Origin: Candidatus Syntropharchaeum caldarium
Lineage (GTDB): Archaea; Halobacteriota; Syntropharchaeia; Syntropharchaeales; Syntropharchaeaceae
Direction: 5' to 3'
Assembly: GCA_001766815.1 (NCBI GenBank)
Contig: LYOS01000002.1
Coordinates: forward strand, 1 to 32,000
Length of the DNA: 32,000 nt
The notes under the pieces are model-generated. The model had not been told where the DNA came from. It was given only the letters and a program-made list of their open reading frames with translations, and did no database searches. Positions 10,418-31,675 of the stretch are shown in pieces. Positions within the stretch are counted from its first letter, which is position 1. Every line of letters starts with the position of its first letter. The position numbers were made by a program, and so were the translations under genes.

Positions 10418-11052
10418 GAATGCTTAAATCAGATCAGGAACATCAGGAGTTTATGCCCTCAAAGGAGGTTGGACGAAAGTTAATACATATACTATCTGGC
10501 ATAATCATTGCATACCTGATCCTCAACCTCCCGTATTTTATTCTTATCTTTCTAACGATGCTTGGGCTTTTATCAACGCTTTTAATATCATATCTTGTCA
10601 AAAAAGGTTTCAGGATACCGTTGATTGATCAAATACTCAACTCGTATGAACGAGAGCATGCAATGGCAAATATGCCTGCAAAAGGCGTTTTGATGTTTAT
10701 TTTAAGTCTGCTTATCCTTCTAATCCTTGTAAGAAGTCCTCTTATCATCGCATCTGCTGTCATAACGCTTGCGCTTGGTGATGGATTTGCGACGATCACT
10801 GGTATCAGATGGGGCAAACACAGGCTGATCGGTAAGAAGAGTCTTGAAGGTTCAGCGGCTTTCTTTCTCACATCTTTCACTGGATTGAGTTTTCTCTTAT
10901 CGCCTCTCTATGCGTTGATTGCAGCTTTTACAGGCACGTTGATCGAGATGATACCACAGGAGGTCATCGATGATAATATAACAATCCCGCTCGGTGTCAG
11001 CGCGGTTCTCATCTTTCTGATAAAGATCTGGGGTGGTGACACATCGATCTGA
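10414..11052 (+). CDS. polyprenol/dolichol (phytol) kinase family membrane protein (CTP-dependent; CdsA/SEC59-like)
   Basis: Multi-TM protein with GDGFATITGIRWGKHRL...KSLEGSAAFF, characteristic of the cytidylyltransferase/dolichol kinase superfamily. ATGA overlap with the upstream gene. Confidence 0.7.
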   Translation: MRMLKSDQEHQEFMPSKEVGRKLIHILSGIIIAYLILNLPYFILIFLTMLGLLSTLLISYLVKKGFRIPLIDQILNSYEREHAMANMPAKGVLMFILSLLILLILVRSPLIIASAVITLALGDGFATITGIRWGKHRLIGKKSLEGSAAFFLTSFTGLSFLLSPLYALIAAFTGTLIEMIPQEVIDDNITIPLGVSAVLIFLIKIWGGDTSI

Positions 11053-15273: not shown

Positions 15274-15330
15274 TGGGAGAGCGGCTGACTCGTAATCAGC
15301 AGGTCGTGGGTTCGAATCCCACCAGCGGCT
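15259..15330 (+). tRNA. tRNA-Thr (anticodon CGU)
   Basis: Hand-folded cloverleaf. Acceptor GCCGCTG/CAGCGGC (7 bp perfect). D arm GCTT-AGTGGGA-GAGC. Anticodon arm GCTGA-CTCGTAA-TCAGC (anticodon CGT). Variable loop AGGTC. T arm GTGGG-TTCGAAT-CCCAC. Discriminator T, no encoded CCA. Confidence 0.9.
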
Positions 15331-17775: not shown

Positions 17776-18045
17776 ATGAAAACTGTTCTTATCGAGGAAA
17801 AAGAGCAGATACCGAAGTACCTGCTGAAAGCAACCCGTCTGCTTGACGAAAAGGCAAAAAACAGGACACGCTCAGGCTTGATTCGTTTCAGTGAGGTTTA
17901 CAGGATTCTGTCACCATTTTTCAGGCTTACAAAAGCTGAGACATGGGATTTACTTGTTGAGATGGAACGATTTGGGCTGATCAGGATCATCAGACACAAC
18001 GGCATAAAAATCACAGAAGAGATGGAGGGTGGTATGAATGGGTGA
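17776..18045 (+). CDS. small winged-helix-like protein
   Basis: 89 aa. RFSEVYRILSPFFRLTKAETWDLLVEMERFGLIRIIRHNGIKI resembles a wHTH. There is an 8-nt overlap with the downstream replication gene, suggesting translational coupling. Confidence 0.55.
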   Translation: MKTVLIEEKEQIPKYLLKATRLLDEKAKNRTRSGLIRFSEVYRILSPFFRLTKAETWDLLVEMERFGLIRIIRHNGIKITEEMEGGMNG

Positions 18046-20863
18046 ATTCGACGCTTTAACTGTTAGGCAGATTTTTCGATTTTTATCACACACACCATTT
18101 ACTGAGATCCGGGGGATCGATCCGAATGGAAAGAAAAGGCCAGTAATCTACTTCGTGACGGACGAGGATGACTTTGTAGACCGGTGCAGGGGGCTCACGG
18201 GTGATTACAATGTATATGTTGGTATCAATCCAAGACAGCGGCGAAGGGGGAAGGCTGAGGATATAGCAAGTGTAAACGCAGTCATCCTTGATGTTGATGC
18301 AAAACGACCCGATAAAAAGCAGCCAGCAACGGATGAGGAGCTTTCGAAGGCTGAGGAGGTTGCAGACAGGATCATTCGGTGGTTTGAGGCTCAAGGCTTC
18401 CACAGGCCTATCAAATGCATGAGCGGTAATGGGTGGCAACTTTGGGCTGCCATTCCACACATCGGGCTTGATGATGGGAATAGAGATGTGATTCAGGCTA
18501 AGCTACAGGCTTTTCAGAGGTTAATTGAAAAGATGTTTGAGAATGGAGATGTTGAGATCGATAATATCGGCGATTTACCTCGCATCATCAAGGTGATTGG
18601 GACTAAATCGATAAAGGGGGAGAATACACCAGAGAGACCACACAGGCTTTCTTATGCTGTTGATCCAGTTGTGAGGAATGAGGATCCAGGGCTGAGGGAT
18701 TATATCCTGAGTCTTGAGGCTGAAAAGAGTGATGTGCAACTTGCAAATCCATCAGAAGTACAGGTAAAGAGTGAACTCCGCCCGTGCTTCAGGCAGGCAA
18801 TAGAAGAGCGGTGGCAGCTTACCGGTGGGGATGGTCACCACTTCCGGCTTGCGCTTGTTGCAGAGCTTATTGCGGCGGGGTATGGTGATTCAGAGATTCA
18901 TGATGTCTTTAAGATTCAAAGCGATTATGATCCAGGGATCACACAGTCACACATCAATCGGACGAGGGAGAAGGGTATCAGGCCTCATCGTTGTGTAACA
19001 ATTCAGCGGGATTGTGCATCCTTGGTGAGGCAGCTCTGTGAAGCGTGTAAGGAGGGGAAAAGAAAAAGGAATGGAAGAGCAAGCGGAGAGGCCGGCACAA
19101 CAATTAAATCGCAAAACGACAGGCTTGTCACGCTCGCCTTAACCCGCCTTGAAGCAATCGGATGCGATCAATACAGTGAGCCACACGCCATCATTGTGAA
19201 TGGCGGCGGGGGTGTGCGCGCGCTACGTATGAGGTCGAGGGAATTTAGAGAGTGGCTTGCTGAAATATGGTGGCAGAAAGAGCAAAAAGCACTGAGTAAC
19301 GACGCGCTAACAACCGCTACAACAACATTGGCAGGTGTCGCGAGGTTTGAGGGCGGCCGATTCCATCTATGGAACAGGGTCGCTGAGTTAAATGGTCGGA
19401 TCTACTACGATCTTGCAAATGAGTCAGGTGAGGTTATCGAGATCGATGAGAATGGATGGGAGGTTATCACCGATCCACCAGTGCTGTTTAGGAGTGAACA
19501 GCATCAGAGAACACAAATAATACCTGAGCGCGGGGGCAGTATTGACGACCTCTGGCGATTTTTCACGCTTGAGAGTGAGAGAAATAGATGTCTTTTTCTC
19601 ACTGTTCTTATCTCATACTTCTTCCATGAAATACCACGTCCGATTGTGGCGTTTTATGGTCAGCACGGCAGCAGGAAGACAACGTTTTCGAAATGGATCA
19701 AAGAGCTGATCGATCCATCTAAGACAGAGACATTGAGGATGCCGACAAGGGATAACGACATGATTATAAGCCTGTTCCACCATTACTGTGCTGTATTCGA
19801 TAATGAGGGTGTGATCAAGGATTGGCAAAGTGATATACTCTCACGGGCTGTGACAGGGGCTGGTGAGACGAAACGGGCACTTTACACCGATGAAGATGAA
19901 GTGATCTTCAATTATAAACGGGCAATAGTCTTAAACGGCATTCTAATACCGTTATATCGTCCTGACGTTGTAGACAGGTCTTTGTTCTTTAAGTTGGAGA
20001 GGCGTGAAGACAACAAGAGCGGGAGAGAGTTGCAACACGAGTTTGAGACAGCAAAACCTCAACTTTTTGGCGCACTTCTTGATCTCCTTGCAAAGACGCT
20101 GAGGGTACTTGAGAACGAGGAGATCAATATCCCCGGTGGAATACGGATGTACGATTATGCCGAGGTCGGTGAGGCATGTATGAGAGCACTCGGATATAAG
20201 GAAGGGACATTTTTGCGGCACTACCTAAGTTCAAAGGGGGACGATAATCTCAGAGTTATTGAATCGTCTTTGATGGGAAACGTGCTGTTATCACTGTTGA
20301 ATGATGGTTTTTATACCGATGATGAGGGAATCAGACACAACTTTCTGGATGATGAGCAGCGATGGGAGGGTACACCATCTGAACTTCTTACTGTTTTCAA
20401 CCTCAAAGCAAAAGAGCTTGGGATTGACAGGCGTTCCAGAGACTGGCATGGTTCACCAAAGGGGCTTTCAGAGGAGATTGAGCGGTTAAAAACAAACTTA
20501 GCGGCTGTTGGGGTGATGATTGAGCGTGGGAAGTCAGGGAATCGTTACATCAACATTTACCAACGTGGTGGGGGGAATAAGGTCGACCCCTTTAGTAAAG
20601 GCAATCTTGCGTCCTTTGCGTCCTTTGCGTCCGGGTTGGGGGACGAAGTGGACGAACCGGACGCAAAATTGCATACTCTTAAGGGTCAGGGGGTTGAACC
20701 CATCACCGGGGATGATGACCTTGACAACGTTCTCAGAAAACTCAAGGCCTTCCTTGATTACGATCGACAGTTGCTGGACAATCGATCGCGTACTTCTTTC
20801 AGAGAAGCTGTGATAAGCCAGCTTGAGCTTCAGGGGGCTTCTTCTCCCTCGGGAATCAAGTGA
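18038..20863 (+). CDS. plasmid-type replication protein: N-terminal archaeo-eukaryotic primase (prim-pol) fused to a C-terminal P-loop (SF3/D5-like) helicase
   Basis: AEP motifs AVILDVDAK (DxD), MSGNGWQLWA (sGxG) and PRIIKVIGTKSIKG. PriCT-like helical segment CFRQAIEERW...HHFRLALVAELIAAGYGDSEI. Walker A YGQHGSRKTTFSKW and Walker B CAVFDNEG. Architecture resembles pRN1 ORF904-type proteins. Confidence 0.88.
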   Translation: MGEFDALTVRQIFRFLSHTPFTEIRGIDPNGKKRPVIYFVTDEDDFVDRCRGLTGDYNVYVGINPRQRRRGKAEDIASVNAVILDVDAKRPDKKQPATDEELSKAEEVADRIIRWFEAQGFHRPIKCMSGNGWQLWAAIPHIGLDDGNRDVIQAKLQAFQRLIEKMFENGDVEIDNIGDLPRIIKVIGTKSIKGENTPERPHRLSYAVDPVVRNEDPGLRDYILSLEAEKSDVQLANPSEVQVKSELRPCFRQAIEERWQLTGGDGHHFRLALVAELIAAGYGDSEIHDVFKIQSDYDPGITQSHINRTREKGIRPHRCVTIQRDCASLVRQLCEACKEGKRKRNGRASGEAGTTIKSQNDRLVTLALTRLEAIGCDQYSEPHAIIVNGGGGVRALRMRSREFREWLAEIWWQKEQKALSNDALTTATTTLAGVARFEGGRFHLWNRVAELNGRIYYDLANESGEVIEIDENGWEVITDPPVLFRSEQHQRTQIIPERGGSIDDLWRFFTLESERNRCLFLTVLISYFFHEIPRPIVAFYGQHGSRKTTFSKWIKELIDPSKTETLRMPTRDNDMIISLFHHYCAVFDNEGVIKDWQSDILSRAVTGAGETKRALYTDEDEVIFNYKRAIVLNGILIPLYRPDVVDRSLFFKLERREDNKSGRELQHEFETAKPQLFGALLDLLAKTLRVLENEEINIPGGIRMYDYAEVGEACMRALGYKEGTFLRHYLSSKGDDNLRVIESSLMGNVLLSLLNDGFYTDDEGIRHNFLDDEQRWEGTPSELLTVFNLKAKELGIDRRSRDWHGSPKGLSEEIERLKTNLAAVGVMIERGKSGNRYINIYQRGGGNKVDPFSKGNLASFASFASGLGDEVDEPDAKLHTLKGQGVEPITGDDDLDNVLRKLKAFLDYDRQLLDNRSRTSFREAVISQLELQGASSPSGIK

Positions 20864-20923
20864 TTCAGCAGTTCTTATGGCAATAAACATGCTTTACTCT
20901 GATCTTAATGGAGGTGATCGAGC

Positions 20924-21286
20924 ATGACTGAGTTTATTTCACTTGAAGAGCTGGTACGTAGTGGGGTAAAAATCCTCCCACAAAGCACACTTCTCCTTGG
21001 TGGAGAGCTGCGGAAGCTGGTTTGTCCTCAATGCGGTAAGAAATATATTCTTGCACGACAGCCGGGAAATCCAATTTTGGGTGGCTCAAAGATTTCTATC
21101 GGACTACTCAAAAAGCCAGTATCTTGTGATGATTGTGGGATGCCCCTGAAAAAAGGAGATGAGGCGGTTGCAGTGACCCTGGGGTGTGGGTCATGGTCAG
21201 TCCCGGCTTGGGAACATAGGTTTTTCGAGGGCCTGTTGTGGAAAGAAAAAAGTGAGGAGTCGGATGAGATGGTAAGATTTGGGTGA
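20924..21286 (+). CDS. zinc-ribbon protein, function unknown
   Basis: 120 aa with CPQCGKKY...CDDCGMPL (CxxC...CxxC). GGAGGTGA SD at 20909-20916. Confidence 0.6.
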   Translation: MTEFISLEELVRSGVKILPQSTLLLGGELRKLVCPQCGKKYILARQPGNPILGGSKISIGLLKKPVSCDDCGMPLKKGDEAVAVTLGCGSWSVPAWEHRFFEGLLWKEKSEESDEMVRFG

Positions 21287-21342
21287 GTAGATGGAAGTCT
21301 TAACGAGAAAGCGTACCACAGATTTTTTCACGATCAGCGGGC

Positions 21343-23922
21343 TTGAGAAGCAGACTGGCACAGATCGACACAACTGGGACAGGTATAATTCTCAAGGAGC
21401 TGATCGATAACGCTTTGGACGCATCTGAGGAGGCAGGGTTACATCCATATATTGAAGTTGGGATTGAGCTTTATTGTGGAGCTCTCAGGATCCGGGTGAG
21501 AGACAGCGGACCGGGGATGGATATATTCACACTCAAAAAAGTTCTTGATGTCGATAAATATGCTGGTTCTAAGACATTCTTCAGGAGACCAACGCGTGGA
21601 GCACAGGGCAACGCTCTGATGACAGTGTTTTCAATTCCACTCGTTCTCGGTGGGCATGTAATTATTTCATCAAAATTCGGTGTCTATGATATTGGCTTAG
21701 AGAGCGATCCAATCTCACAGGATACACACTTTCTTTTAAACCAAATTTCAGAGGCAGAGCACACTGGTTTCTCCATTGAGGTGGGATTGCCTGTTGAATA
21801 CTGGTTTGAAGCAGAAAAAGAGCGATACCAGAGCATCTTACATGGATTTGCAGCATTCAATCCTCATGCAAGTTTTTCTTTTGAGATCTTCGGTGAAGTA
21901 TGGAAAAGCGATGCACGCGGTGAGATAAGGCGATACCTTCAGAAGGAGCCAATTCACTGGTATTCCTTCGATGAGTTTAGAGAGCTTGTTTATACCTACC
22001 TCAGGGAGGGGATTGACCCGACAGTCAAAGAATTTTTACAGCGGTTCAGAGGCGTTTCACGAAACACAAAGATAAACGTGAGGGGGCATCTTTCTCAGGC
22101 TTCAGAAGAAGAATTGAGGTGCGTTTACGAGGAAGTCAAGAAAAGCACAAAACCACCAAACCCACAGGCACTTGGTGGTATCGGTCGTACGTGTGCCTTT
22201 GAGTTTATGAAAGCAGTCCCTGGGGCAGATCTTTCAACCTTCAAATTCAAATCCACAGAACGAGTTGTGATCTCAGTTGATGATAAATCCACACACCTCA
22301 AAGAGACACCCTACCTGATCGAAGCTGCTGCTGTGGAGCTGAAAGAGGGTGGGAGGCAAGCATATCTCGGGATTAACAACTCCCCTGCACACAACCCGGA
22401 GCTGCTTGAGAGGATACTGGGTTTCCAGTATGATATCAACTTTCGGGATCCTGTCCTGGTTTTCCTCCATATCATCTCTCCAGGCCTTGAGTATCAGAAC
22501 TATGGGAAGACTGAGTTCGAATACTCCGGTGCGCTTGAGGGGATACTTGAGGCGCTTGAACGGGTGTTGAAGGAGTATCTGGAAAAGAAGAGGAAGGTTG
22601 AGGACAGGCTGAGGCGTGAGCAGGAAAAAGAGATAAAAGAAGCGGAAAAAGCGATGAAAAAACTGGCACGAGAAGAGAAAGAGAAGAGACAACAGCGAAT
22701 TAAGGAGATATTTATTGCAACTATCGACGAAGCGTTAAAATTAACCTCTGATAATGGACGATACACACCACCAATAAGACAGGTTTTCTATAAGCATCGA
22801 CCGATACTCCAGGAGCATGGTGCTGAGATTGATTATGCATATTATGAGCGCCTGTTCAAGGAAGAAGAGGAAAGACGAGGGGTAAGGCTCGCAAACAGGG
22901 AGGCAAGAGGGGGCATCATCCTCCCGCGCAGTGGTGAGTGGGTTCAGATTGATACAAGGTTTTTGAATGAGTTTGAACCACCCGAGTGGGAATTTAATAA
23001 AGTACTTTACATTGAAAAAAGAGGGTTCATCGATTACCTGATTCAGGCTGAGATCCACAACCGGTACGATATGGTGCTTGTGGGTGGACAGGGATACTCC
23101 ACATGGGATAACAGAGCGCTTCTTGCAAAAATCGTGGAAAAGGTCCCATCATGCAAGATCTTCTGCCTCCATGATTGTGATATTGATGGGATTGAGATCA
23201 AGAACACACTTGAGCGTGAACACTACATAGACGGGACTAAAATTGAGGTGATCGATCTTGGCCTGATTCCAAAAGAGGCTATTGAGCGCAAGCTGCCACG
23301 GGAAACACAGGTGAGGACAAAACGACCAAAGAAAATTTTATCACAGCTATCCGAGGATGAGAGGAGATTTTTCAATATTAGAAAAGGTAAAGGAAAGAGC
23401 TGGCTTGTGGATCGTGTTGAGCTCAACGTATTCTCCCCTGGTGAGTTTATTGCGTGGGTTGGGAAGAAGTTGAGGGGGTTTGGCGTTACCGAGAAGGTCA
23501 TACCACCGGGAAATCTCATCAGAGGACACACGGATGAGATTTTAGCAAGGAAAAGATCTCTTGAAGATATTAAGATCTCTGATCCAGAGCTTGATAATCT
23601 GATTATTGAGTTGAAACACCTGTTCTTCGATTTTGATGGGTTTAAAGCCTCAATCGAGAGAGAATGGAACAGGACTTTCAGAGTGGATCAGGAAGAGGCA
23701 AAAATGGCTGTGGAGAAGAGGCTTAAAACCAATCCCCAGAATGCTGGAGAGATGCACTTGAAGAAATTATCGAAAAAAGGATTGAGGAGAAGCAGAGTGA
23801 GTGGAGAACTAAGGTTGGAAATATTAAAGTGCAGCACACAAACAGAAAGGTATTCGGTGAAGTGGTTGGCATTCTCCAGAGTGTTGTTAAAAAGTACAAA
23901 AATCGAAAAAATCACGGAATGA
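21343..23922 (+). CDS. fused type IIB topoisomerase-like protein (GHKL ATPase + Spo11/TopoVIA-like 5Y-CAP/Toprim), Topo VIII-like; the 5' end is probably frameshifted
   Basis: Bergerat-fold motifs LKELIDNALDA (N box), VRDSGPGMD (G1) and TRGAQGNALMT (G2). K/E-rich coiled-coil linker. Candidate catalytic Tyr in IRQVFYKHRP. Toprim acidic motifs VLYIEKRGF and CLHDCDIDGIEI. The track start is TTG 21343, but an SD-preceded ATG at 21291 lies in another frame. Confidence 0.8.
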   Translation: MRSRLAQIDTTGTGIILKELIDNALDASEEAGLHPYIEVGIELYCGALRIRVRDSGPGMDIFTLKKVLDVDKYAGSKTFFRRPTRGAQGNALMTVFSIPLVLGGHVIISSKFGVYDIGLESDPISQDTHFLLNQISEAEHTGFSIEVGLPVEYWFEAEKERYQSILHGFAAFNPHASFSFEIFGEVWKSDARGEIRRYLQKEPIHWYSFDEFRELVYTYLREGIDPTVKEFLQRFRGVSRNTKINVRGHLSQASEEELRCVYEEVKKSTKPPNPQALGGIGRTCAFEFMKAVPGADLSTFKFKSTERVVISVDDKSTHLKETPYLIEAAAVELKEGGRQAYLGINNSPAHNPELLERILGFQYDINFRDPVLVFLHIISPGLEYQNYGKTEFEYSGALEGILEALERVLKEYLEKKRKVEDRLRREQEKEIKEAEKAMKKLAREEKEKRQQRIKEIFIATIDEALKLTSDNGRYTPPIRQVFYKHRPILQEHGAEIDYAYYERLFKEEEERRGVRLANREARGGIILPRSGEWVQIDTRFLNEFEPPEWEFNKVLYIEKRGFIDYLIQAEIHNRYDMVLVGGQGYSTWDNRALLAKIVEKVPSCKIFCLHDCDIDGIEIKNTLEREHYIDGTKIEVIDLGLIPKEAIERKLPRETQVRTKRPKKILSQLSEDERRFFNIRKGKGKSWLVDRVELNVFSPGEFIAWVGKKLRGFGVTEKVIPPGNLIRGHTDEILARKRSLEDIKISDPELDNLIIELKHLFFDFDGFKASIEREWNRTFRVDQEEAKMAVEKRLKTNPQNAGEMHLKKLSKKGLRRSRVSGELRLEILKCSTQTERYSVKWLAFSRVLLKSTKIEKITE

Positions 23923-24383
23923 AGTGGGTGATTTAGCATGGTAACAGGAGACCCCAACTTTTTGAAAATCCATACCTTTCACAACCACCAAATAAACGAA
24001 GAAGCAAAGCTTGAGGAATGATCACCACTTGCGCAGGTTCATCATGATCCTGTGGAGTGGAATAGGAGTGAATGAACAAACCAGCCACAATATAACTCAC
24101 ATAATTATACAATCACACAGCATCCCACCGATACTCCTTTTATACCCCACATAAGAGGTCAGTGTGGAGGGAATGAATAGGGGTAACATGGGAGAGCAGA
24201 GTGAGGGTAGTTATGAGAGTAATTATAAGAAATATAATACAAATATATAGTAAGAATGATATAGAGAAATAAAAGGGTCTGTTTAATATTCCTGAAAAAG
24301 GAAGAGAGGATAGTTGAATATTGGGAGGGTTTGACCAGAGGGATGTATATGCGAATTGTGTTGGATGCACGGAGACTAAGATT

Positions 24384-25298
24384 ATGAGTTTAACATCATT
24401 CTTAAAAAATAAAGATGTGAAAGATGCTTTCAAACAGGAGTTTAAAAAACCACGATTAAAACTCCAAGGTGAGTTATTATCACCTCCTTTAACAAATCAC
24501 TATGGTCTTGTTGGTACAGCATTTGATTACTTACTTCGTTTTTATATAAAACAAGTAAATCCCAACGCTATAGAGGGACGTTGGGTAAGTGAAGCGTCTC
24601 TTCATTTATTGGAAATGGCACAATTGCGGGATTCGCTCGAGGTTCCTGAAGAAACACCAGTTATGCAAAAATTAAAAGAAATGATCACAGAAAAACCAAT
24701 ATTATCTGATCCTACTGTCCATAAAAAAGTTGTAGAAATAATACAGTTTTCAAGGAAGGTTTATGCTGAATTTATCAGGAAAGGAGAGATGGGTTCTGAT
24801 TTATTTAAAGCAGTATTGCTATTAGCTCAGGTGGATGTGATATATAGAGCTGGAATTGTAGATGAAAATTTAAGCAGTATTGATGAAAAGGACATAGAGG
24901 ATCTAAGGAATTTGGTATCAATAGTAAAACCAGAATATTTCAAAGCGAAGAGAATATGCATATTAAATCCGACATTTGGAATAGCCTCTCAATTAGTTGG
25001 CGGGGCAGATTGTGATTTGGTTATAGATGATGCAATAATAGATATAAAGACTACGAAGAAACTTGATTTAACAAGAAACTTTTTTGATCAGTTAATAGGC
25101 TATTATATCCTCCACAAAATTGGGGGTATTGAAGGTATGCCCTCGAACTGTGAAATAAAAAGATTAGGAATATACTTCTCCAGGTACGGATATCTCCACT
25201 TTATTGATGTGCGAGATATCATAAGCGAAGACACGTTTCCAAATTTTTTAGAATGGTTTAAGAAAAGGGCGAGTGATGAATATGGAATGGATATATAG
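24384..25298 (+). CDS. PD-(D/E)xK (RecB/Cas4-like) nuclease-fold protein
   Basis: Motif order GLVGTAFDYLLRF ... GGADCDLVIDDAIIDIKTTKK (D...D/ExK) ... FDQLIGYYIL (QxxxY), as in the RecB-family nuclease core. No Cys cluster. ATG 24384 is preferred over the track start at 24321. Confidence 0.65.
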   Translation: MSLTSFLKNKDVKDAFKQEFKKPRLKLQGELLSPPLTNHYGLVGTAFDYLLRFYIKQVNPNAIEGRWVSEASLHLLEMAQLRDSLEVPEETPVMQKLKEMITEKPILSDPTVHKKVVEIIQFSRKVYAEFIRKGEMGSDLFKAVLLLAQVDVIYRAGIVDENLSSIDEKDIEDLRNLVSIVKPEYFKAKRICILNPTFGIASQLVGGADCDLVIDDAIIDIKTTKKLDLTRNFFDQLIGYYILHKIGGIEGMPSNCEIKRLGIYFSRYGYLHFIDVRDIISEDTFPNFLEWFKKRASDEYGMDI

Positions 25299-25347
25299 TT
25301 ATGCCGAGCCTCCGAACTCTACTGTGATTCGCGCCTCGCCCTTTGGG

Positions 25348-25437
25348 TCACTTAACTGGAGGATAGGTGGCTCGCTTACGCTACGCCCAAATTTCGCAAG
25401 GCGAAACTTCACATATCCCCAGAACGTTATGCGAAAT
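25348..25437 (+). repeat. copy 1 of a ~90-nt conserved structured intergenic element
   Basis: Blocks in order: TCACTTAAC, GGCTCG, CGCCCAAAT, hairpin TTTCGC-AAG-GCGAAA (25392-25406), ACTTCA, then a 26-nt tail ending GCGAAAT. Homologous to the copies at 26203 and 27452. Confidence 0.85.
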
Positions 25438-25451
25438 CGGAGGTTCATAAA

Positions 25452-26192
25452 ATGATCAATTCAAAGGGGAGAAAAATGGACGCTTCAGATATAGAAAGCA
25501 AACCGAAAGCAGGAGCAGGGGATGTAGCCCATACTCTTATAAGGACGGGTCTTTCAGCAATACCGGTTCTCGGTGGACCAGCTGCAGAGATTTTCTCAGC
25601 AATTATTGTTCCTCCACTTTCTAAGCGGCGTGATGAATGGATAGAATCAATCGCCAAAAAGCTCAAGGCGCTAGAGGAAAAAGTAGATGATTTTAATATT
25701 GAGGCTCTTTCTCAGAACGAGGTCTTCGTCACAACAGTTATGCACGCAAGTCAAGTAGCGATTCGCAATCATCAAAAAGAAAAGCTTGAAGCCTTGCGCA
25801 ATGCAGTTCTAAATGCAGCTTTATCAAATGCCCCGGAAGAAGACATTCAACTTATGTTCCTCAACTTTGTCGATACTTTTACGCCATGGCATTTGAGAAT
25901 ATTGAAATTCTTTGACAATCCCCAAGAATGGGGACGAAGAGTCGGTATCACCTATCCAAATTGGCCAACGGGCAGCCTATCAACGGTTTTAGAACACACC
26001 TTTCCAGAATTGAGAGGACGACGCGATTTTTATGACCAGGTTGTCAAAGACTTGTTTATTCGGGGATTGATGAACACAGAATCATTACACGGTATTATGA
26101 CTCCACAAGGGATGTTTGCATCTCGCACAACACCATTGGGAAAACAATTTATTAACTTTATTACGTCTCCAATTGAAAGTGATGATGATTAG
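25452..26192 (+). CDS. hypothetical helical protein; the N-terminal segment is loosely reminiscent of Abi-alpha/DUF4393-type proteins (unverified)
   Basis: 246 aa. GGAGG SD at 25439-25443. An alternative in-frame start ATG 25476 follows AGGGGAG. No firm family recognised. Confidence 0.6.
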   Translation: MINSKGRKMDASDIESKPKAGAGDVAHTLIRTGLSAIPVLGGPAAEIFSAIIVPPLSKRRDEWIESIAKKLKALEEKVDDFNIEALSQNEVFVTTVMHASQVAIRNHQKEKLEALRNAVLNAALSNAPEEDIQLMFLNFVDTFTPWHLRILKFFDNPQEWGRRVGITYPNWPTGSLSTVLEHTFPELRGRRDFYDQVVKDLFIRGLMNTESLHGIMTPQGMFASRTTPLGKQFINFITSPIESDDD

Positions 26193-26202
26193 GAAAGCAA
26201 CT

Positions 26203-26295
26203 TCACCTAACCCAGACAAAAAGGCTCGTGCCTTCAGCACTTCGCCCAAATTTCCCTATGGGAACTTCAGATACGCCAAATCCTAGGCGAAAAAT
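26203..26295 (+). repeat. copy 2 of the ~90-nt conserved structured intergenic element
   Basis: Blocks in order: TCACCTAAC, GGCTCG, CGCCCAAAT, hairpin TTCCC-TAT-GGGAA (26252-26264), ACTTCA, then a 26-nt tail ending GCGAAAAAT. Confidence 0.85.
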
Positions 26296-26307
26296 GGTGA
26301 GGAAAAT

Positions 26308-27432
26308 ATGATTAAAAATAATTGGCTTGAAAAGATATTGAAAGAGTGCGGAGAACAAAAACAAAAAGAACTCCATGAATTAAGAGGAGAGCCTCCGAAA
26401 TTTACCTTTAGAATTGAGAGCGGAAAAGAAAGTTTCGGTTTTAGAATTGATCTCAGCGAATTAATAGACAAGTTCTACACACCAATTAAGCTTTTAGAAA
26501 GAGCACAAAGTGGAATATCAAATCTTTTAACCGCATTAAATTTAAATTTTGAGATGAATTACGTAGTGAAAGGGCTTTCGGGTGAATACATTGTTCCCTT
26601 TTATCTAAAGGATGAGGAACGACAAGTTATATTTACTCCTGCTTTATTTCCTTGCATCTTAGAAGCTTTTGGTTTTCCGTCACCCCAATCATATAATGCA
26701 TTTTTACCTTTTCTGACTTTGGAGTTTTTCAAATACATAGATATAATGAATGCTCAAGAAAAACCAACGATTATGGCTTTTTATGGGATTACTAACTTCA
26801 CAGAGGTTGCAAATGTAAACTTCCTCGAATTTTTTGAAGCCACCTTAAAAGACAAAGGTATTACTCCTAGTAAAGGAGATATACAGAAATCAATGAAAAA
26901 CGAGGGAATTTATGGGATTGATATTAAAAATATGTTTGAATCATATGGCATTCCTAGAATCGATATAAAACTTAAGGATGCATTGAGAATGTCTATTTTA
27001 TCTCCAGATATCTCTGAAAATAAAAGAGAATTGGTAGGATATTGTGTAGAGTTAGATCTACCCAGATTTCTAAATCCAACCATTTTAGATTATTCTTTAT
27101 ACGCCACTCACAAATATGGAGAGATTAAACCTGAAACGTTGGGCGATTTTATAACAAAGGGGAAATCACTCGGGCATACACCCTCATCTTCAAAACGATT
27201 GCCGGACATTACTCCTAAAAAAGCAGAGAAAGATCCCTTTGATTTGATGGAATACTTAAAACAAGAAGAAATGGTTGTAGAAGCGAGAGGGAAATATACG
27301 CTAACACCAGAAGGTTTAAGACTAACAGAAATGGAAGTTTACGGCAAACCTCCTGAGTCAACCCTTAGAAAGGTATGGAATATTATAATGAACGCAAAGC
27401 GTTTGATACCATTCCTAAAGTTTATTCAATAG
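26308..27432 (+). CDS. hypothetical protein with probable C-terminal winged-helix domain
   Basis: 374 aa. GGTGAGG SD at 26296-26302. C-terminal DPFDLMEYLKQEEMVVEARGKYTLTPEGLRL looks MarR/wHTH-like. No family recognised for the N-terminal ~300 aa. Confidence 0.6.
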   Translation: MIKNNWLEKILKECGEQKQKELHELRGEPPKFTFRIESGKESFGFRIDLSELIDKFYTPIKLLERAQSGISNLLTALNLNFEMNYVVKGLSGEYIVPFYLKDEERQVIFTPALFPCILEAFGFPSPQSYNAFLPFLTLEFFKYIDIMNAQEKPTIMAFYGITNFTEVANVNFLEFFEATLKDKGITPSKGDIQKSMKNEGIYGIDIKNMFESYGIPRIDIKLKDALRMSILSPDISENKRELVGYCVELDLPRFLNPTILDYSLYATHKYGEIKPETLGDFITKGKSLGHTPSSSKRLPDITPKKAEKDPFDLMEYLKQEEMVVEARGKYTLTPEGLRLTEMEVYGKPPESTLRKVWNIIMNAKRLIPFLKFIQ

Positions 27433-27451
27433 CTATGAGAATTGCACCACA

Positions 27452-27542
27452 TCGCCTAACCGGCTCATATCCGACTTCGCTAACGTTTCGCCCAAATCCA
27501 GCAATGCTGAACTTCAGTTCTGCTCAAAACCCTATCGAAAAT
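27452..27542 (+). repeat. copy 3 of the ~90-nt conserved structured intergenic element
   Basis: Blocks in order: TCGCCTAAC, GGCTCA, CGCCCAAAT, hairpin CAGC-AAT-GCTG (27499-27509), ACTTCA, then a 26-nt tail ending TCGAAAAT. Confidence 0.85.
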
Positions 27543-27767
27543 CACGAAAAAAGTTTTTAAGGGTACGAAAGTGTGTGTATAGAAATGTTATATATACCAC
27601 TACATTGTCTATTATATAAATACACGTGAAGTTCACAGTTCTCAATCCAACTCTGTGGGAAGTGGGGAAAATGTGGTCACTAGATACGCACTTTGAAGAT
27701 ACACGCCAGTACATATTCTGGTTGGTTAAACGAGATAAAAAGATCAGGAATCGAAGGAGGGGGTTAC

Positions 27768-30764
27768 ATGCTGGCTGTTAAATTACGAGAGGAAATAGCC
27801 GATGCTAAAAGTGAAGCGCAATTAGTTAGAAATATCAACCCTGTAATATCATGGGATGATTTCAAACCTCCTGAGGGACCGGATATCCCTGCCCAACTGG
27901 GTGGATTAGAGGGAGATCCTGAGTGGTTTTTTTCTCATACATATCCAACAAGTGTAATCAAGGAGGTTTTAGAGGGTATAAAAGAGAAAATTGAGGGTGT
28001 TGGTCCAGGAGTATTTCCATTAGATGGGTATCTCGGTTCGGGTAAATCCCACATTCTTTTGACATTATATCACATATTCAGGCACCCAGAGGAGGCATTA
28101 TCCTGGTTTAAAAAATGGGGTATAGACTTTCCTGAGATAGAGGATACAATCGTAATCCCCGTACCCCTTCAAAACGTTAGCTACAAAGACTTATGGTCTC
28201 CATTCTTTAAAGCGTTGGGAAAAGATATCGATGTAGAAGAGGAGGACTGGCCTAAGCCTAACCAGATAAAAAAAGCTGTGGGAGATAAGAAGGTTCTAAT
28301 GTTGATCGATGAAATTGATAACTGGTATGATGCGAAAAGCAGCCAAGAAAAAGCAAGGGTTCGAGGGTTTCTACAGAGCCTCTCGGAGACCTCCGAGGAT
28401 CCTGATTACCAACTAAAACTTGTAACAACTTTCTTGGGGTTATCCTCAGATGTTAAAGTATTGAGAGATATCGTTGCCCGTCCACGCGGAGGTTCTTCAA
28501 TAGTCATGCAAAGGACCGAGGACATATTTGATATCGTTAGGTTCAGATTGTTCGAGGTTACTGATGATGCCGAGATAGAAAAGATCATTTTGGAGTATCT
28601 TAAAAAAATAGGCGAGAAGCTTCGCAAAAAGGGGTTAGATGAAAACTCACATCTAAGGGATGAGCTGAAGAGGGCATATCCGTTTCATCCATCTTTCCTT
28701 AGAACTCTAAGCTCCCTCAAAGTACGGCAGATGCTTGTGATGTTAGCCAGAGTTGTAATGAGGAAACTTGATAAGGTCGATCTAATAATAGCCTCGGACC
28801 TTGATGATGACATCTTGAGGGACTACTTGCATTCTGCAAATCCTAAGATCGTGGATGCGTACTTTGAGGATATCCGCTTTGTTCAAAATACAAGAGAAGT
28901 GAAGGATGGGATAATTTCATTTGACCTGGCAAGGGCCATACTACTTACTTCCATGCTTAATACCACAGAGACCAAAAAAGGAGCAGATATCAAGGATATA
29001 ATCTTTGGTTGTAGCCCAAAATATAAGGTTCAGGACATTGACGACACAATATCATTCTTAGAGAAATGGACGAGACTGAAAAAGATTGAAGAAGATGGGA
29101 TAATAAGATATGTCATAACCACTGAGCTTCCGGTTGCAGTTAAAATCGAAAGAAAAGCCCAATTAATATCTGCTGATGATGCCCTGAACAGAATAAAACA
29201 GCTTGTAGAAAAAACGGTTTCCTCAGAGATCAGAGGCTATAAACTAATCTATGATCCATCAGAGATCACCAATGATAAAAGGTTAAAGATCCTCACACTC
29301 CTTGAGAAGCCATTGGATCTCTCTTCCGTCTATCCGTCTGACTTTACCAACAAAAATACGCTTTATCTTTTGTATCCAGGTTACAGCCTGAAGAGCGATG
29401 AGACGATCAAGCTTGCTAAGCGGATTATAGCAAGTAGTGAACTTGCAGAGACCGAGGAACAGAAAGAACCCTTTAAGGATTTCCATAAAGAGTATATGAA
29501 GCATCTAAAAAAGCAGATAGACAATGCTGGGTGGAGAGGGTTCAGATGGTTTAGAAAGAACCTAAAAGATAGACCCACCCCGGATGAAAGGACGATTACA
29601 AACCTTAAAGATGTTGATGAGGTCATCAAGAACTATGCCTCAAAAGACCTATTGAAGTACTTTTTGAACATGGTTCTGGAAGAACAGAACGAGATTTCTC
29701 TACGAGACCTGAAGGAGAGGTTTTACCGGCTCGAAGGTGCGCCCATCCTTCTAAAGGATGAAGACCTATTATCATTACTGGCTGAAATGGAGAAAAATGG
29801 AGAAGTAGCCATTAAAACCAAGCAGGGGAGGACATTATACAAAGAGTCCATATCTCCTCAGATTGTAGGTAACGAGGATGTAATCGAAAAACCACCTGAA
29901 ACCGCTGTGCCACCCACAACAGGTGACGTTGCTACACTGGTCAAGGATAAGAAGAAGTTACATTACAAGGAGTATGCGAGTAGATATCCATTCATCGAGG
30001 AGGGGGTTCTTGAGAAGGTTTACATCTCATCCATCAACCCCAAAGATGGGATATTTGCTATAGAGGAGAACAAGGTAGTCAGTAGGCCCACAAACACAAA
30101 ATTAAGTGCCCTTGCAGTAAAAGAGGAGGCTGCAAAGGTATTAGAGCCGTTAGTTCTCAAGATTGTTAATGAAAAAATTGCCATCAAATTACCTGAGTTG
30201 AGCGAGATATTAAAAGAGACCTATGGAAATTCTGGCATAACAGATGATCTCGTCCTGATGGCAAGCGATAATCTTGAGATAGGTACCCAGGTGCATATAC
30301 TGAGGAGGAAAGATGCGGTTGTAGTTCAGCTTCCTGAGGAGAGATTAATAGATGAAGTCAAGAAAAAGATATTCTTTGAAGTGAAAAAGGAGGGTGAGAT
30401 CGATAAGGAAATCCTTATCGAGGAACTATCTAAGAGAATACCCACAGAAAAGAAGACGTTTGATGATGCTATCGCATACCTCATAGATGATGGAAAGTTG
30501 GAGTTTGATAAAGAGTCCGATAAGCTCTCATTACCAAGGAAAAAAGATAAACCAGTAAAGCCAAAGAAAAGGATCATTATTAAAGAAGAAGGAACGACGA
30601 GTGAGATAATAAATAAAATAGGGGAGATAGTGGAAGAGACTGACATTATAGAAGATGTCAGGATAGAGATTGTCAAGGACCTGTCTGCAAAAGAGCTCAA
30701 GGAGCTTCTTGAGAGAACCGGCGAGATGAGTATAAAGTTAATGGCCAGGAGAAAGGAGATATGA
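27768..30764 (+). CDS. brxC: BREX BrxC/PglY-like P-loop ATPase (DUF499 family)
   Basis: Walker A LDGYLGSGKSHILLTLYHIF and Walker B VLMLIDEIDNWY. DUF499-type AYPFHPSFLRTL motif. About 1000 aa with a K/E-rich C-terminal third. ATG 27768 follows GGAGGGGG (27755-27762); the track start 27693 is an upstream TTG. Confidence 0.8.
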   Translation: MLAVKLREEIADAKSEAQLVRNINPVISWDDFKPPEGPDIPAQLGGLEGDPEWFFSHTYPTSVIKEVLEGIKEKIEGVGPGVFPLDGYLGSGKSHILLTLYHIFRHPEEALSWFKKWGIDFPEIEDTIVIPVPLQNVSYKDLWSPFFKALGKDIDVEEEDWPKPNQIKKAVGDKKVLMLIDEIDNWYDAKSSQEKARVRGFLQSLSETSEDPDYQLKLVTTFLGLSSDVKVLRDIVARPRGGSSIVMQRTEDIFDIVRFRLFEVTDDAEIEKIILEYLKKIGEKLRKKGLDENSHLRDELKRAYPFHPSFLRTLSSLKVRQMLVMLARVVMRKLDKVDLIIASDLDDDILRDYLHSANPKIVDAYFEDIRFVQNTREVKDGIISFDLARAILLTSMLNTTETKKGADIKDIIFGCSPKYKVQDIDDTISFLEKWTRLKKIEEDGIIRYVITTELPVAVKIERKAQLISADDALNRIKQLVEKTVSSEIRGYKLIYDPSEITNDKRLKILTLLEKPLDLSSVYPSDFTNKNTLYLLYPGYSLKSDETIKLAKRIIASSELAETEEQKEPFKDFHKEYMKHLKKQIDNAGWRGFRWFRKNLKDRPTPDERTITNLKDVDEVIKNYASKDLLKYFLNMVLEEQNEISLRDLKERFYRLEGAPILLKDEDLLSLLAEMEKNGEVAIKTKQGRTLYKESISPQIVGNEDVIEKPPETAVPPTTGDVATLVKDKKKLHYKEYASRYPFIEEGVLEKVYISSINPKDGIFAIEENKVVSRPTNTKLSALAVKEEAAKVLEPLVLKIVNEKIAIKLPELSEILKETYGNSGITDDLVLMASDNLEIGTQVHILRRKDAVVVQLPEERLIDEVKKKIFFEVKKEGEIDKEILIEELSKRIPTEKKTFDDAIAYLIDDGKLEFDKESDKLSLPRKKDKPVKPKKRIIIKEEGTTSEIINKIGEIVEETDIIEDVRIEIVKDLSAKELKELLERTGEMSIKLMARRKEI

Positions 30765-31675
30765 TAGAGATCGCCGGGGGTTCAATAAAGATTAACGACG
30801 TAAGCAAACTCGTTCATGGTAACCCGATAGATGGAGTATTTGAATCCTTAAACGATATATGGAGTCATGCATGGTTCAAAGACGATGAGTATTATCCCCT
30901 CGGGGAGGAGCTGGCATCAAAATTCGAAGAACAGGTTTTCAATCTTTATCCTGAGATATACGATTGTATATTAACAAATGCAGAAAGGAGCGATAAAATA
31001 AGCGAGGTACTTTCAAAGCCCCGGTATTGCCTTGTTGTAATGGATGGAATGAGTTTAAGAGAGGTTTTGCCATTATTGAAGGAATTTAAAAAATATGGTG
31101 AGGTCAAATACAGATATGCATACTCAGCAATCCCAAGCGAGACGGAATTTTTTACGAGACGACACTTTAACACAGCATCCCCCTCCCAAATAAAATCCAG
31201 CGAAAGATATCACTTTGTCCATTTGCAAAGGGAGGATGATATCGAGGATATACCTTCAGACAAAGATAAGTTGATAGCCTGGTCAACATACCCAGATTCT
31301 ATCTTTTCCCAATTTAAAAGTGGTTTTGAAACCCAGGACCTCAAAGAGGTCTTCAATAAGACGAAGGATATTCTACTTAGGTTACTTGAGCACCTATCAT
31401 CCTCTAAGGAAATCATCATCACATCAGATCATGGATATTTTGTCGATACATTCTCGTGGAAGGGCTTGGATGACTTTCCAAGCGGGGAGAGATACTCGTT
31501 CAACATTCCAGAATCACTTAAGAGATACTGTAGGCAGTTCGATGACTACTGGATACTTGTGGGAAGGTACAACACGATAAAGCGGGGGAAGTACACTCAT
31601 GTGAGACATGGGGGGCTGTCATTCCTTGAGACGATAATACCCTTCATTGAAGTAAAAAGAGAGGGAGGAGAGTAA
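30761..31675 (+). CDS. pglZ: short PglZ-domain (alkaline-phosphatase superfamily) protein
   Basis: PglZ core motifs CLVVMDGMSLRE, IIITSDHGYF and VRHGGLSFLETIIPF. ATGA start/stop overlap with brxC. Only 304 aa. Confidence 0.8.
   Translation: MIEIAGGSIKINDVSKLVHGNPIDGVFESLNDIWSHAWFKDDEYYPLGEELASKFEEQVFNLYPEIYDCILTNAERSDKISEVLSKPRYCLVVMDGMSLREVLPLLKEFKKYGEVKYRYAYSAIPSETEFFTRRHFNTASPSQIKSSERYHFVHLQREDDIEDIPSDKDKLIAWSTYPDSIFSQFKSGFETQDLKEVFNKTKDILLRLLEHLSSSKEIIITSDHGYFVDTFSWKGLDDFPSGERYSFNIPESLKRYCRQFDDYWILVGRYNTIKRGKYTHVRHGGLSFLETIIPFIEVKREGGE

Follow-up and report, generated by a model that had tools for sequence, protein, structure and literature searches.

The three homologous ~98-nt elements described here are very probably attC-like recombination sites of an integron-like gene-capture system. 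They lie in the window, the whole 32-kb stretch of archaeal DNA that was analysed. The crossover position, the link to an integrase gene and an attI-like site together mark them as predicted recombination sites. Integrons are the textbook system for gene capture and shuffling, and two hallmarks are taken to define them: a specialised additional domain in the integrase, and conservation of the attC sites in shape, not in sequence. The element family follows the cassette logic of integrons, yet both hallmark rules are broken.

Three homologous elements follow three ORFs in the window

A covariance model (R1) was trained on homologues from outside the window only and then used to place the window copies. 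It found element 1 at 25341–25438, element 2 at 26196–26294 and element 3 at 27445–27542, all on the + strand, and no further copy in the 32-kb window. This agrees with the preliminary description, which had located three homologous elements there, one after each of three ORFs. These ORFs, also on the + strand, are at 24384–25298 (cassette 1, 304 aa from the ATG at 24384), 25452–26192 (cassette 2, 246 aa) and 26308–27432 (cassette 3, 374 aa). As had been noticed, the elements are GC-richer (47–49%) than the surrounding kilobases (35–42%). The pattern CGCCCAAAT-N(8–20)-AACTTCA occurs three times in the window vs. 0.00 expected from shuffles. Among the shared ordered blocks reported earlier, TCRCYTAAC, CGCCCAAAT, AACTTCA and the tail CGAAA(A)AT could be aligned, but GGCTCG is missing from copy 3. 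As described, the stem of the hairpin between CGCCCAAAT and ACTTCA differs among the three copies, and its loop always has 3 nt. The proposed ~33-nt internal subunits reduced to a recurring ACTTC before R′′ and L′, a motif that is weakly conserved upstream of R′′.

Element 1 scored 76 bits (E = 2.8e-17) with model R1, with four non-standard pairs only. It is composed, on the + strand, of R′′ (CACTTAAC, 25349–25356), L′′ (25357–25369), hairpin A (about 25370–25386), the core CGCCCAAAT (25384–25392), hairpin B (25392–25406, the hairpin of the preliminary description), ACTTC (25406–25410), L′ (25410–25422), a bulged AAC (25423–25425) and R′ (GTTATGCG, 25426–25433), with AAAT next. When folded as ssDNA, the L′′/L′ stem and the inner hairpins formed on either strand. 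We regard element 1 as a putative intact attC-like site.

Element 2 scored 29.3 bits, with numerous non-standard pairs in P1 and P2. It retains the core, hairpins A and B and ACTTCA; its L′′/L′ stem is broken, and its R′ reads CCTAGGCG where GTTAGGCG is expected. The distal part of this R′ (TAGGCG) still complements R′′ of element 3 (CGCCTAAC). Element 3 (29.8 bits) retains that R′′, the core and hairpin B; its L′′/L′ pairing is lost, and its R′ reads CCTATCG where GTTATCG is expected. When aligned with the intact element that follows the orthologous cassette in locus L153, element 3 showed substitutions in L′′, L′ and GTT. Judged by their sequences, element 2 is a decayed site, and element 3 is a decayed, mutated form of the intact L153 element. 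R′ of element 1 (GTTATGCG) is not complementary to R′′ of element 2 (CACCTAAC), and a search upstream of cassette 1 for GTTAAGTG, the expected partner of R′′ of element 1, found none; hence, the window array is not a pristine series.

The element family folds into a three-way junction

When folded singly, the three window copies were not significantly better than shuffles (z = −0.4 to −2.2), and it is the family, rather than these three copies by themselves, that provides the structural signal. An exact-pattern scan of one genome per species yielded 64 loci, with about 40 true homologues in archaea and bacteria, and in these loci R1 found 78 copies, arranged as same-strand arrays. The pattern also matches three viral contigs. 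The family now comprises about 150 copies, distributed over about 80 loci that represent many archaeal and bacterial phyla, and is widespread in uncultured Archaea and Bacteria of sediments, vents and the subsurface.

The fold is a three-way junction, in which an outer R′′/R′ pair (YTAAC/GTTR) and an L′′/L′ stem surround two inner hairpins that are joined by the conserved CCCAAAT and ACTTC. The R-L spacer is asymmetric: a single A on the 5′ arm faces 5 nt, such as GAAAC, on the 3′ arm. The L′′/L′ helix (11 bp) is 92% paired, with compensatory changes at 10 of its 11 pairs. The covarying hairpin of the preliminary description, hairpin B, held up in the family (93% paired, compensatory changes at all 6 pairs), although it is only one of four helices. 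AAC/GTT is nearly invariant (111/111, 111/114 and 104/115 paired), followed by a Y-R pair; typical R′′/R′ words are CGCCTAAC/GTTAGGCG and CATATAAC/GTTATATG.

Among 115 distinct copies, pairing was found in 89.5% of cells vs. 70.9% in shuffles and 20–44% in slid registers, and double-change cells numbered 615 vs. 218; the largest covariation count comes from an alignment fitted to the model and leans towards structure. Canonical copies folded as ssDNA gave z values of −3.1 to −7.0. In one canonical copy the bottom strand reached −25.2 vs. −20.7 kcal/mol for the top strand (z = −7.0 vs. −4.8), an advantage due to pairing of the conserved AAGTT/AATTT through one G⋅T. The suggestion that selection acts on structure (RNA or ssDNA) is thus borne out by strong covariation. 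RNAalifold on a MAFFT alignment was discarded as a source of the structure: the variable hairpin A was misaligned, so that only hairpin B and the GGC/GCC pairs came out, and the structure was therefore specified by hand.

The first homologue set had been chosen with a pattern that fixes CGCCCAAAT, AACTTCA and CGAAA, and among copies chosen by pattern or model the inner part is conserved (GGCT, CCCAAAT and ACTTC). In the integrase-anchored set, which is still R1-selected, only CCAAAT and ACTTC stay conserved (CCCAAAT in 33/50, ACTTC in 45/50). A single bulged base in L′′ is restricted to one subtype, and a hairpin just 5′ of R′′, considered as a general feature, was likewise confined to one subtype. 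Chimeric elements (L056; L010 vs. L057) were also observed, suggesting that exchange takes place inside the element too.

The elements probably act as DNA rather than RNA

Throughout the family, the elements form same-strand arrays between tightly packed ORFs. The median inter-element interval is 1090 bp (n = 69), and 66 of these intervals have a co-oriented longest ORF; the median distance is 18 nt from stop codon to element and 35 nt from element to next start. A position just after stop codons, co-orientation with the genes and strong structural covariation would also be expected of structured RNAs in 3′ untranslated regions, whether as terminators, as signals for processing or stability or as small RNA genes; the cassette-like appearance would then reflect operon architecture. 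The minus-strand fold of the three window copies, which gains G-U pairs, pointed the same way; this hint was misleading, and was not borne out by the family. G⋅T and A⋅C mismatches are symmetric among the 115 copies (31 vs. 39 in P2, 13 vs. 20 in P4). Rfam holds no matching family: at gathering thresholds it returned tRNA only, in keeping with the earlier remark that the motif is no known RNA family, and relaxed scans gave chance-level matches far below gathering scores (lowest E-values 0.31 and 0.42). An RNA role would also leave unexplained the pairing of R′′ with the preceding R′, the complement of the first R′′ beside the integrase gene (both below) and the occurrence of one gene with such an element in unrelated neighbourhoods. 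The lack of strand bias of wobble-type mismatches and the R′′/preceding R′ pairing, which only recombination explains, argue for DNA and not RNA, and we consider the RNA reading very unlikely.

Neighbouring elements are complementary across a GTT crossover

With a crossover at GTT, the distal part of each R′ would, in a linear array, form part of the following cassette. Full pairing of the three variable R′′ bases was seen with R′ of the preceding element in 27/46 cases, vs. 23/120 with the element's own R′, 4/46 with R′ of the next element and 11% in random pairs. Where the element's own R′ and the preceding R′ carry different bases, pairing of R′′ is with the preceding one in 22/25, 24/30, 16/23 and 4/5 cases. 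This complementarity places the crossover within or next to the invariant GTT of R′, as at the integron attC. This test took over from mapping the crossover by BLAST alignment end points between loci, which gave few informative pairs with ends blurred by the conserved core.

Neighbour complementarity also shows that what moves is a gene together with its element rather than an element by itself. It thereby bears on whether these could be short repeats of a selfish kind (MITE-, REP- or BIME-like), spreading by themselves into intergenic regions, as their many copies per genome, intergenic position, palindromic nature and the assembly breaks at copies might indicate. Orientation is strict both in the arrays and relative to the integrase (65/65), a pattern of terminal inverted repeats and target duplication was not seen in the element flanks, and the window copies are confined to one cluster. 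Autonomous spread is therefore extremely improbable. There was no clear Rfam match, pairing was preserved in the other copies, and the copies showed no random, MITE-like scatter; the opposite of each had been named in the preliminary description among the outcomes that would count against it.

Arrays are linked to a Xer/IntI-like integrase and an attI-like site

In 80 integrase-anchored metagenome loci, all R1 hits (65/65) were on the integrase strand, and an element was present downstream in 16 of the 17 loci having at least 4 kb of downstream flank. The integrase gene is upstream of the array and co-oriented with it. In 9 loci an element is also found 57–485 bp upstream of the integrase gene, which a simple integrase-attI-array model does not predict. 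An exact 8-mer complement of R′′ of the first cassette occurs once, 42–235 nt after the integrase gene, in 18/22 loci. About 100 nt after that gene lies an attI-like site of conserved architecture (palindrome - CCCAAA(A)T - palindrome - GAACAA - GTTRNNNG). The cassette-like combination of ORF and element noticed at the outset thus extends to arrays tied to an integrase and an attI-like site.

The integrase scores 153 bits against XerA, with which it aligns end to end (PDB 4a8e, 5hxy), and 152.5 bits against IntI. Its match to XerA is continuous, whereas that to VchIntIA (2a3v) is split, with 24 residues vs. 66 in IntI. Scores against TIGR02249 were 143–198 bits (cut-off 265), and one member passes the NCBI XerA model (225 bits, cut-off 220). 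The predicted protein resembles Xer and IntI, and lacks the IntI-specific domain (intI_Cterm, near patch III). It keeps the C-terminal SPLD motif common to IntI. At its N terminus it carries an additional domain of about 62 aa, tethered by a variable linker; the 73 full-length integrases vary in length only at this linker, after residue 62. The N-terminal domain had no sequence or fold match alone, and a structure search with the integrase model returned the recombinase core only. The integrase genes of L065 and L066 are frameshifted.

Xer acts at one double-stranded 28-bp site and resolves chromosome dimers. In contrast to Xer/dif, including Xer-mobilised pdif modules, the sites here are ~98-nt folded elements arrayed beside the gene, and the integrase, unlike Xer, carries the extra N-terminal domain and the SPLD motif. 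A small extra N-terminal domain on a flexible linker is also found in arm-binding integrases (lambda Int, Tn916/Tn1549 Int). By this analogy, the N-terminal domain may be a second DNA-recognition module beside the core-binding domain, as the comparison suggests; its proposed target, however, is a motif inside the recombination site and not distant arm sites.

The preliminary description had not matched the motif to any recombination site, but it resembles the integron attC. As in classical integrons, the cassettes are promoter-poor, co-oriented ORFs, each ending in a folded imperfect palindrome with R′′/R′ boxes of the classical form RYYYAAC/GTTRRRY and a second pair L′′/L′; crossover is in GTT, with the distal R′ part belonging to the following cassette; and the attI-like site adjoins the integrase gene and has the same GTT insertion point. 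Integrons, including the archaeal ones (Ghaly et al., 2022, PMC9668308), resemble the family further in occurring in both Archaea and Bacteria and in carrying toxin-antitoxin genes and genes without known function.

These likenesses raise the question of whether the elements are ordinary integron attC sites, the window being a standard archaeal CALIN served by a canonical IntI elsewhere and the Xer-like integrase being incidental. A CALIN is a cluster of attC sites lacking an integron integrase, with at least two attC sites <4 kb apart and no integron integrase nearby (Cury et al., 2016, PMC4889954). CALINs are known from ANME-1, Archaeoglobi, Thermoplasmatota and Bathyarchaeia (PMC9668308 Data S1/S3), and R-box words of the family, such as GCCTAAC/GTTAGGC and GTATAAC/GTTATAC, are as in published archaeal attCs. 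The crossover position and the cassette layout are also those of integrons, and the true catalyst could be a canonical IntI encoded at another place in these genomes.

However, published archaeal attCs have a TAAC-AAnnC-L′′ layout (PMC9668308): all nine sequences read R′′, 5-nt spacer, L′′, and none has the CCCAAAT/ACTTC core. Here the spacer is 1 nt vs. 5 nt, unlike the roughly symmetric unpaired spacer and extrahelical bases of integrons, and where integrons have a variable terminal structure, the elements have a conserved three-way junction (CCCAAAT, ACTTC, GGCT). The attI-like site differs too, consisting of two palindromes around the same CCCAAAT motif. The array-linked integrase is without the IntI-specific domain and has the tethered N-terminal domain in addition; its gene is co-oriented with the cassettes, in contrast to the divergent integrase gene of integrons, and in some cases has an element before it. 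The link is too strong and too oriented (65/65 strand, 16/17 downstream, attI complement in 18/22) for an incidental integrase. We therefore consider ordinary attC sites unlikely.

The window holds a probable fossil platform

The cassette 1 ORF matched PADLOC PDC-S61 (E = 8.4e-12), RTasPDDEXK (E = 8e-4) and phrog_34041 (E = 4e-27) and no family in Pfam or NCBIfam; its predicted product is PD-(D/E)xK nuclease-like and matches a candidate defence family. The cassette 2 ORF matched phrog_26838 (E = 7e-12) and no family in Pfam, NCBIfam or PADLOC. In public data, an assembly contig breaks 62 nt upstream of this ORF, at element 1. The cassette 3 ORF is SCAL_000575 of Ca. Syntrophoarchaeum caldarius; just 11 homologues were found, and these are cassette genes in other arrays. 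A homologue (67% identical) in L153/L154 has R1 elements on either side (68.7 and 45.6–45.9 bits), and another (89% identical) in L151/L152 has a GmrSD gene before it and a weak element after it, so that such elements accompany this gene in unrelated neighbourhoods. The cargo of related cassettes comprises toxin-antitoxin pairs, glycosyltransferases and genes without known function; the family is not tied to defence genes, contrary to the defence context assumed in the preliminary description.

Upstream of cassette 1, the + strand sequence at 24290–24375 resembles that found after the integrase stop in intact loci, and is a candidate attI-like remnant at the proximal end of the platform. It resembles the 5′ palindromic module of the attI-like site (GACCAGAGGGATGTATATGCGAA...), with the second palindrome and the GTT insertion box missing or mutated. 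Positions 24333–24355 are identical over 23 nt to L083 (30 nt after its integrase) and L027, and this region is identical over 21 nt to L113 and L070, in both cases 36–38 nt after the integrase. A relaxed tblastn search of 23601–24420 found no integrase remnant. The sole window integrase (15393–16574), beside tRNA-Thr, was rejected as a member of the array-linked family (25% identity; 99.5 bits vs. a cut-off of 220 with the XerA model).

With three sites within 2.2 kb and no cognate integrase, the window resembles a CALIN that arose by integrase loss and falls within the CALIN spacing and no-integrase limits, membership hinging on accepting the elements as attC. It differs from a CALIN in that its sites are non-classical, a truncated attI-like remnant persists and mutations affect the stems and crossover triplet of two of the three sites. 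We interpret the window as holding a putative fossil platform in a tRNA-Thr-linked island of Ca. Syntrophoarchaeum caldarius: the integrase is gone, the attI is truncated and the array is partly decayed. Both outer stems and GTT are mutated in elements 2 and 3, and the corresponding cassettes are therefore probably immobilised.

A model for the platform and its implications

In the proposed model, an intact platform would consist of a tyrosine integrase gene, an attI-like site and a co-oriented cassette array, in that order, each cassette comprising one or a few ORFs and one ~98-nt element. The element would fold as a single DNA strand into the three-way junction, the bottom strand being the presumed recombination substrate. 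Cassettes would excise as circles and insert at attI, both steps presumably catalysed by the co-located Xer/IntI-like integrase, whose N-terminal domain may read the junction motif common to attI and the elements.

On balance, we lean towards the view that these loci represent a second, undescribed lineage of integron-like platforms in many archaeal and bacterial phyla. Its integrase would stand between Xer and IntI, with a tethered N-terminal domain instead of the domain thought essential for integron recombination, and its attC- and attI-like sites would share a hairpin-CCCAAAT-hairpin module in a three-way-junction fold. Among the publications searched, none describes such a platform variant. 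The lineage might be the sister group of integrons or ancestral to them.

If confirmed, (i) surveys relying on the presence of the IntI-specific domain would overlook these integrases, and possibly their arrays too; (ii) the family would offer a natural comparison for the site features that set strand choice and crossover position; and (iii) it would bear on the origin of integrons from Xer-like recombinases. In the window itself, captured cassettes that later became fixed would account for three orphan genes in the defence island of this butane-oxidising archaeon.

An Element Family With a Conserved Three-Way Fold

Three homologous elements lie on the + strand of the window (elements 1–3, at 25341–25438, 26196–26294 and 27445–27542), each starting a few nt past a co-oriented ORF (cassettes 1–3, at 24384–25298, 25452–26192 and 26308–27432). 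The preliminary description had proposed one such element per ORF, and alignment and position confirmed it. The motif CGCCCAAAT-N(8–20)-AACTTCA occurs three times in the window (0 expected). As had been described, the hairpin between CGCCCAAAT and AACTTCA changes in sequence from copy to copy with its pairing always kept, and the elements are richer in GC (47–49%) than the 35–42% GC stretch around them. An Rfam scan yielded nothing but one tRNA at curated thresholds, and matches at chance level at relaxed ones.

One genome per species was scanned for exact occurrences of the pattern CGCCCAAAT..AACTTCA..CGAAA, which yielded 64 loci, about 40 of them clear homologues. The homologues belong to archaea (ANME-1/Methanophagales, Alkanophaga, Archaeoglobi, Thermoplasmata, Bathyarchaeia, Altiarchaeales and Nitrosotalea) and to bacteria (Dehalococcoidia, WOR-3, Thermotogota, Aerophobetes, Cloacimonadota and candidate-phyla bacteria). 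Three IMG/VR viral-collection contigs (L156, L157 and L158) match the pattern exactly. The consensus of well-preserved copies is 5′-tC-NNN-YAAC-A-[L′′]-GGCT-[hairpin A]-CGCCCAAAT-[hairpin B]-AACTTC-[L′]-NNNAC-GTTR-NNN-CGAAAT, with R′′ and R′ as the outer stem arms and L′′/L′ as the stem next to them.

A covariance model of the family (R1) was built from 39 non-window copies, with the four helices set by hand. In an alignment of 115 distinct copies fitted to R1, 89.5% of the cells were paired, compared with 70.9% in shuffles and 20–44% in slid registers, and double changes numbered 615 vs. 218; L′′/L′ was 92% and hairpin B 93% paired. A count on a plain MAFFT alignment went in the same direction. 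Single-stranded DNA folding of canonical copies gave exactly this three-way junction (z = −3.1 to −7.0). Helix mismatches of the G⋅T and A⋅C types were equally frequent (31 vs. 39 and 13 vs. 20), suggesting that the element acts as DNA rather than as transcribed RNA.

In one element (L009, 4889–4985) the top-strand AAATT...AACTT holds an A⋅C mismatch and the bottom-strand AAGTT...AATTT pairs via G⋅T, so that on the bottom strand hairpin B is longer and the fold more stable (−25.2 vs. −20.7 kcal/mol); this bottom-strand pairing may be a strand-choice feature. One subtype, which includes window element 1 (25321–25348), carries a 5′ extension, TTCGCGCC-TYG-[small hairpin]-TCAC, before R′′, as seen in L002, L027, L037, L041, L057 and L060. 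It is similar to the inner hairpin-plus-core module and is limited to this subtype rather than family-wide. A variant in a Turneriellaceae MAG (L012, 3–99, and L042, 7820–7916) has the outer stem AAAT/ATTT in place of TAAC/GTTA and is oriented opposite to the adjacent genes; among these are genes for a DnaG-type primase and for a 652-aa protein that contains two catalytic stretches of the tyrosine-recombinase type.

The Elements Form Cassette Arrays With a Crossover in or Next to GTT

Same-strand arrays of two to six elements were present in the fetched loci, with a median inter-element spacing of 1090 bp (69 non-redundant intervals). The longest ORF was co-oriented in 66 of the 69 intervals, and the median distances were 18 nt from stop codon to next element and 35 nt from element to next start.

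Four findings mark the elements as recombination sites: complementarity between neighbours, a linked integrase, an attI-like site, and genes that move with their element. Within the outer stem AAC/GTT pairs perfectly; for the three variable positions farther out, pairing with their own partner is seen only about half the time. Among 46 neighbour pairs, 27 had all three variable R′′ bases paired with the preceding element's R′; a full three-base match was found with the element's own R′ in 23 of 120 cases, with the next element in 4 of 46 and in 11% of random pairs. At positions that distinguish the preceding R′ from the element's own, R′′ matched the preceding one in 22/25, 24/30, 16/23 and 4/5 cases. 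Pairing of R′′ with the preceding R′ is the mark of cassettes that are circularly permuted, with the crossover in or next to GTT, as in the attC (cassette) sites of integrons.

Homologues of window cassette 3 were found in other neighbourhoods, with a NucS-like gene and small ORFs upstream in one case and GmrSD in another, and still had an R1 element after them; the genes move together with their element.

One chimeric element (L056, 3944–4040) has L′′ from one subtype and L′ from another, and the loci L010 (100–330) and L057 (2520–2750) have the ORF end and R′′ in common and diverge from L′′ onwards. Chimeric elements suggest exchange inside the conserved core in addition to exchange at GTT.

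An Integrase and an attI-Like Site Are Linked to the Arrays

A truncated recombinase fragment beside the array in L025 was the starting point for a protein family of at least 404 archaeal and bacterial members. On two long contigs the integrase stands at the edge of housekeeping genes and is followed by same-strand R1 arrays. Scanning metagenomes with the family alignment yielded at least 475 relatives. In the 80 loci retrieved from among them, every one of the 65 R1 hits was on the integrase strand, and a downstream element was present in 16 of 17 loci with ≥4 kb of downstream sequence and in 25 of 33 with ≥1.5 kb. Fourteen contigs stop ≤200 bp past the integrase gene, as expected where repeats break assemblies.

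The L065 integrase, rebuilt across a frameshift, has 338 aa and contains the R, HxxR, H and Y motifs of the catalytic site. Its alignment with archaeal XerA is continuous (153 bits), whereas that with the Vibrio integron integrase falls into two pieces (152.5 bits), with 24 residues facing the 66 that hold the IntI-specific domain. Length variation among 73 full-length members is confined to a linker after residue 62; AlphaFold predicts residues 1–62 confidently as a small alpha/beta domain (pLDDT 84–94), and outside this domain the fold is matched best by XerA and IntI4. The NCBI integron-integrase model scored 143–198 bits against a cut-off of 265, and the XerA model was just passed by one of four members. 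The array-linked integrase is not an IntI by the field criterion (Cury et al., 2016, PMC4889954). Both long-contig archaeal integrases have frameshifts at G runs, at differing positions (L065, 10734–10750, 6 G; L066, about 10717–10737, 9 G), for which homopolymer sequencing error, decay and phase variation are possible explanations.

In 18 of 22 loci, the interval between the integrase and the first downstream element holds a single exact 8-mer complement to that element's R′′, always 42–235 nt past the integrase. The conserved layout of this attI-like (insertion) site is palindrome, CCCAAA(A)T, palindrome, GAACAA and GTTRNNNG; CCCAAAT between two hairpins is therefore common to this site and the elements.

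Nine loci have an R1 element 57–485 bp upstream of the integrase on the same strand (L134 3714–3816, L131 9805–9906, L138 4342–4438, L146 1397–1495, L140 1356–1458, L100/L104 and L111/L124). Here the integrase looks embedded in an array or carried as a cassette, and a simple integrase-attI-array model does not predict the upstream elements. L100 and L111 have an identical integrase segment after two different elements, the identity starting at TTATC of R′.

Ghaly et al. (2022, PMC9668308) reported integrons from 75 MAGs of archaea, among them ANME-1, Archaeoglobi, Thermoplasmatota and Bathyarchaeia; the IntIs are said to bear the additional, IntI-specific domain. The nine attCs listed there are all classical (R′′-AAnnC-L′′...L′-spacer-R′), and none of the nine has the core motifs of the present family.

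The Window Copy Is a Decayed Platform in a Probable Island

An R1 scan of the whole window detected no copy beyond the three. Element 1 scored 76 bits, and elements 2 and 3 about 29–30 bits with both outer helices broken: core and inner hairpins are kept, L′′/L′ pairing is lost, and CCTA replaces the expected GTTA. The distal part of element 2's R′ is still complementary to element 3's R′′, but element 1's R′ is not complementary to element 2's R′′. L153 has an intact element behind its orthologous cassette; relative to that copy, element 3 carries point substitutions in both arms and in GTT.

Upstream of cassette 1, 23 nt of the window (24333–24355) match the attI-like site's conserved 5′ module exactly. 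The similarity runs ∼40 nt further upstream, which in intact loci reaches into the end of the integrase gene; no integrase remnant was found at this attI remnant, which lacks the second palindrome and the GTT box. The cassette 1 product is PD-(D/E)xK-like and matches a candidate defence family, and an intact element stands at its end. With no integrase, a truncated attI and two of three sites mutated, the locus is a fossil remnant of three cassettes, and only the first site, if any, could still recombine.

A protein identical to one of Candidatus Syntrophoarchaeum caldarius assigns the window to that archaeon, and the surrounding archaeal chromosomal genes include Cdc6/Orc1, an A-type ATPase subunit and TYW2. 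The island begins at a tRNA-Thr (CGU; 15259–15330). A tyrosine integrase of 393 aa, with a zinc ribbon at its C terminus, starts 63 nt downstream (15393–16574) and shares only 25% identity with the array-linked family. Together the two look like the left boundary of an integrated island that holds defence-type genes (ATPase-Toprim, DUF499 and PglZ-like proteins) and the cassette remnant. Three co-oriented genes at 18038–23922 code for proteins of 941 aa (weak PriL-like match), 120 aa (zinc ribbon) and 859 aa (GHKL ATPase-Topo VI-B transducer-Toprim fusion with weak JetD/MADS matches), possibly an uncharacterised defence module. At ∼24000 the GC content drops from about 0.43–0.49 to 0.35–0.42, where the cassette remnant starts, and stays low to the window end, which suggests a separately acquired block. 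Just downstream of element 3 (27693–31675 and beyond; L147, 2379–10476) is a Hma/BREX-like defence cluster of a DUF499 ATPase, a PglZ-like protein, a DUF1156 methyltransferase-like protein and a DUF87 ATPase; no more elements were found in the 8.6 kb downstream of element 3, and no R1 element closes the cluster within that distance.

The preliminary reading of a structure-selected, cassette-like element is supported and extended by the family, the arrays and the integrase link. Sequence comparison establishes the family and its fold, how the arrays are laid out, where the crossover lies, the links to the integrase and to an attI-like site, and the decay of the window copies. This appears to be an integron-like cassette system whose window copy has decayed, a variant type of which no description was found in the literature searched. 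The array-linked integrase would catalyse recombination of the elements, with single-stranded DNA, probably the bottom strand, as substrate; its N-terminal domain would read the shared CCCAAAT/ACTTC module, and the cassettes would circulate as circles.
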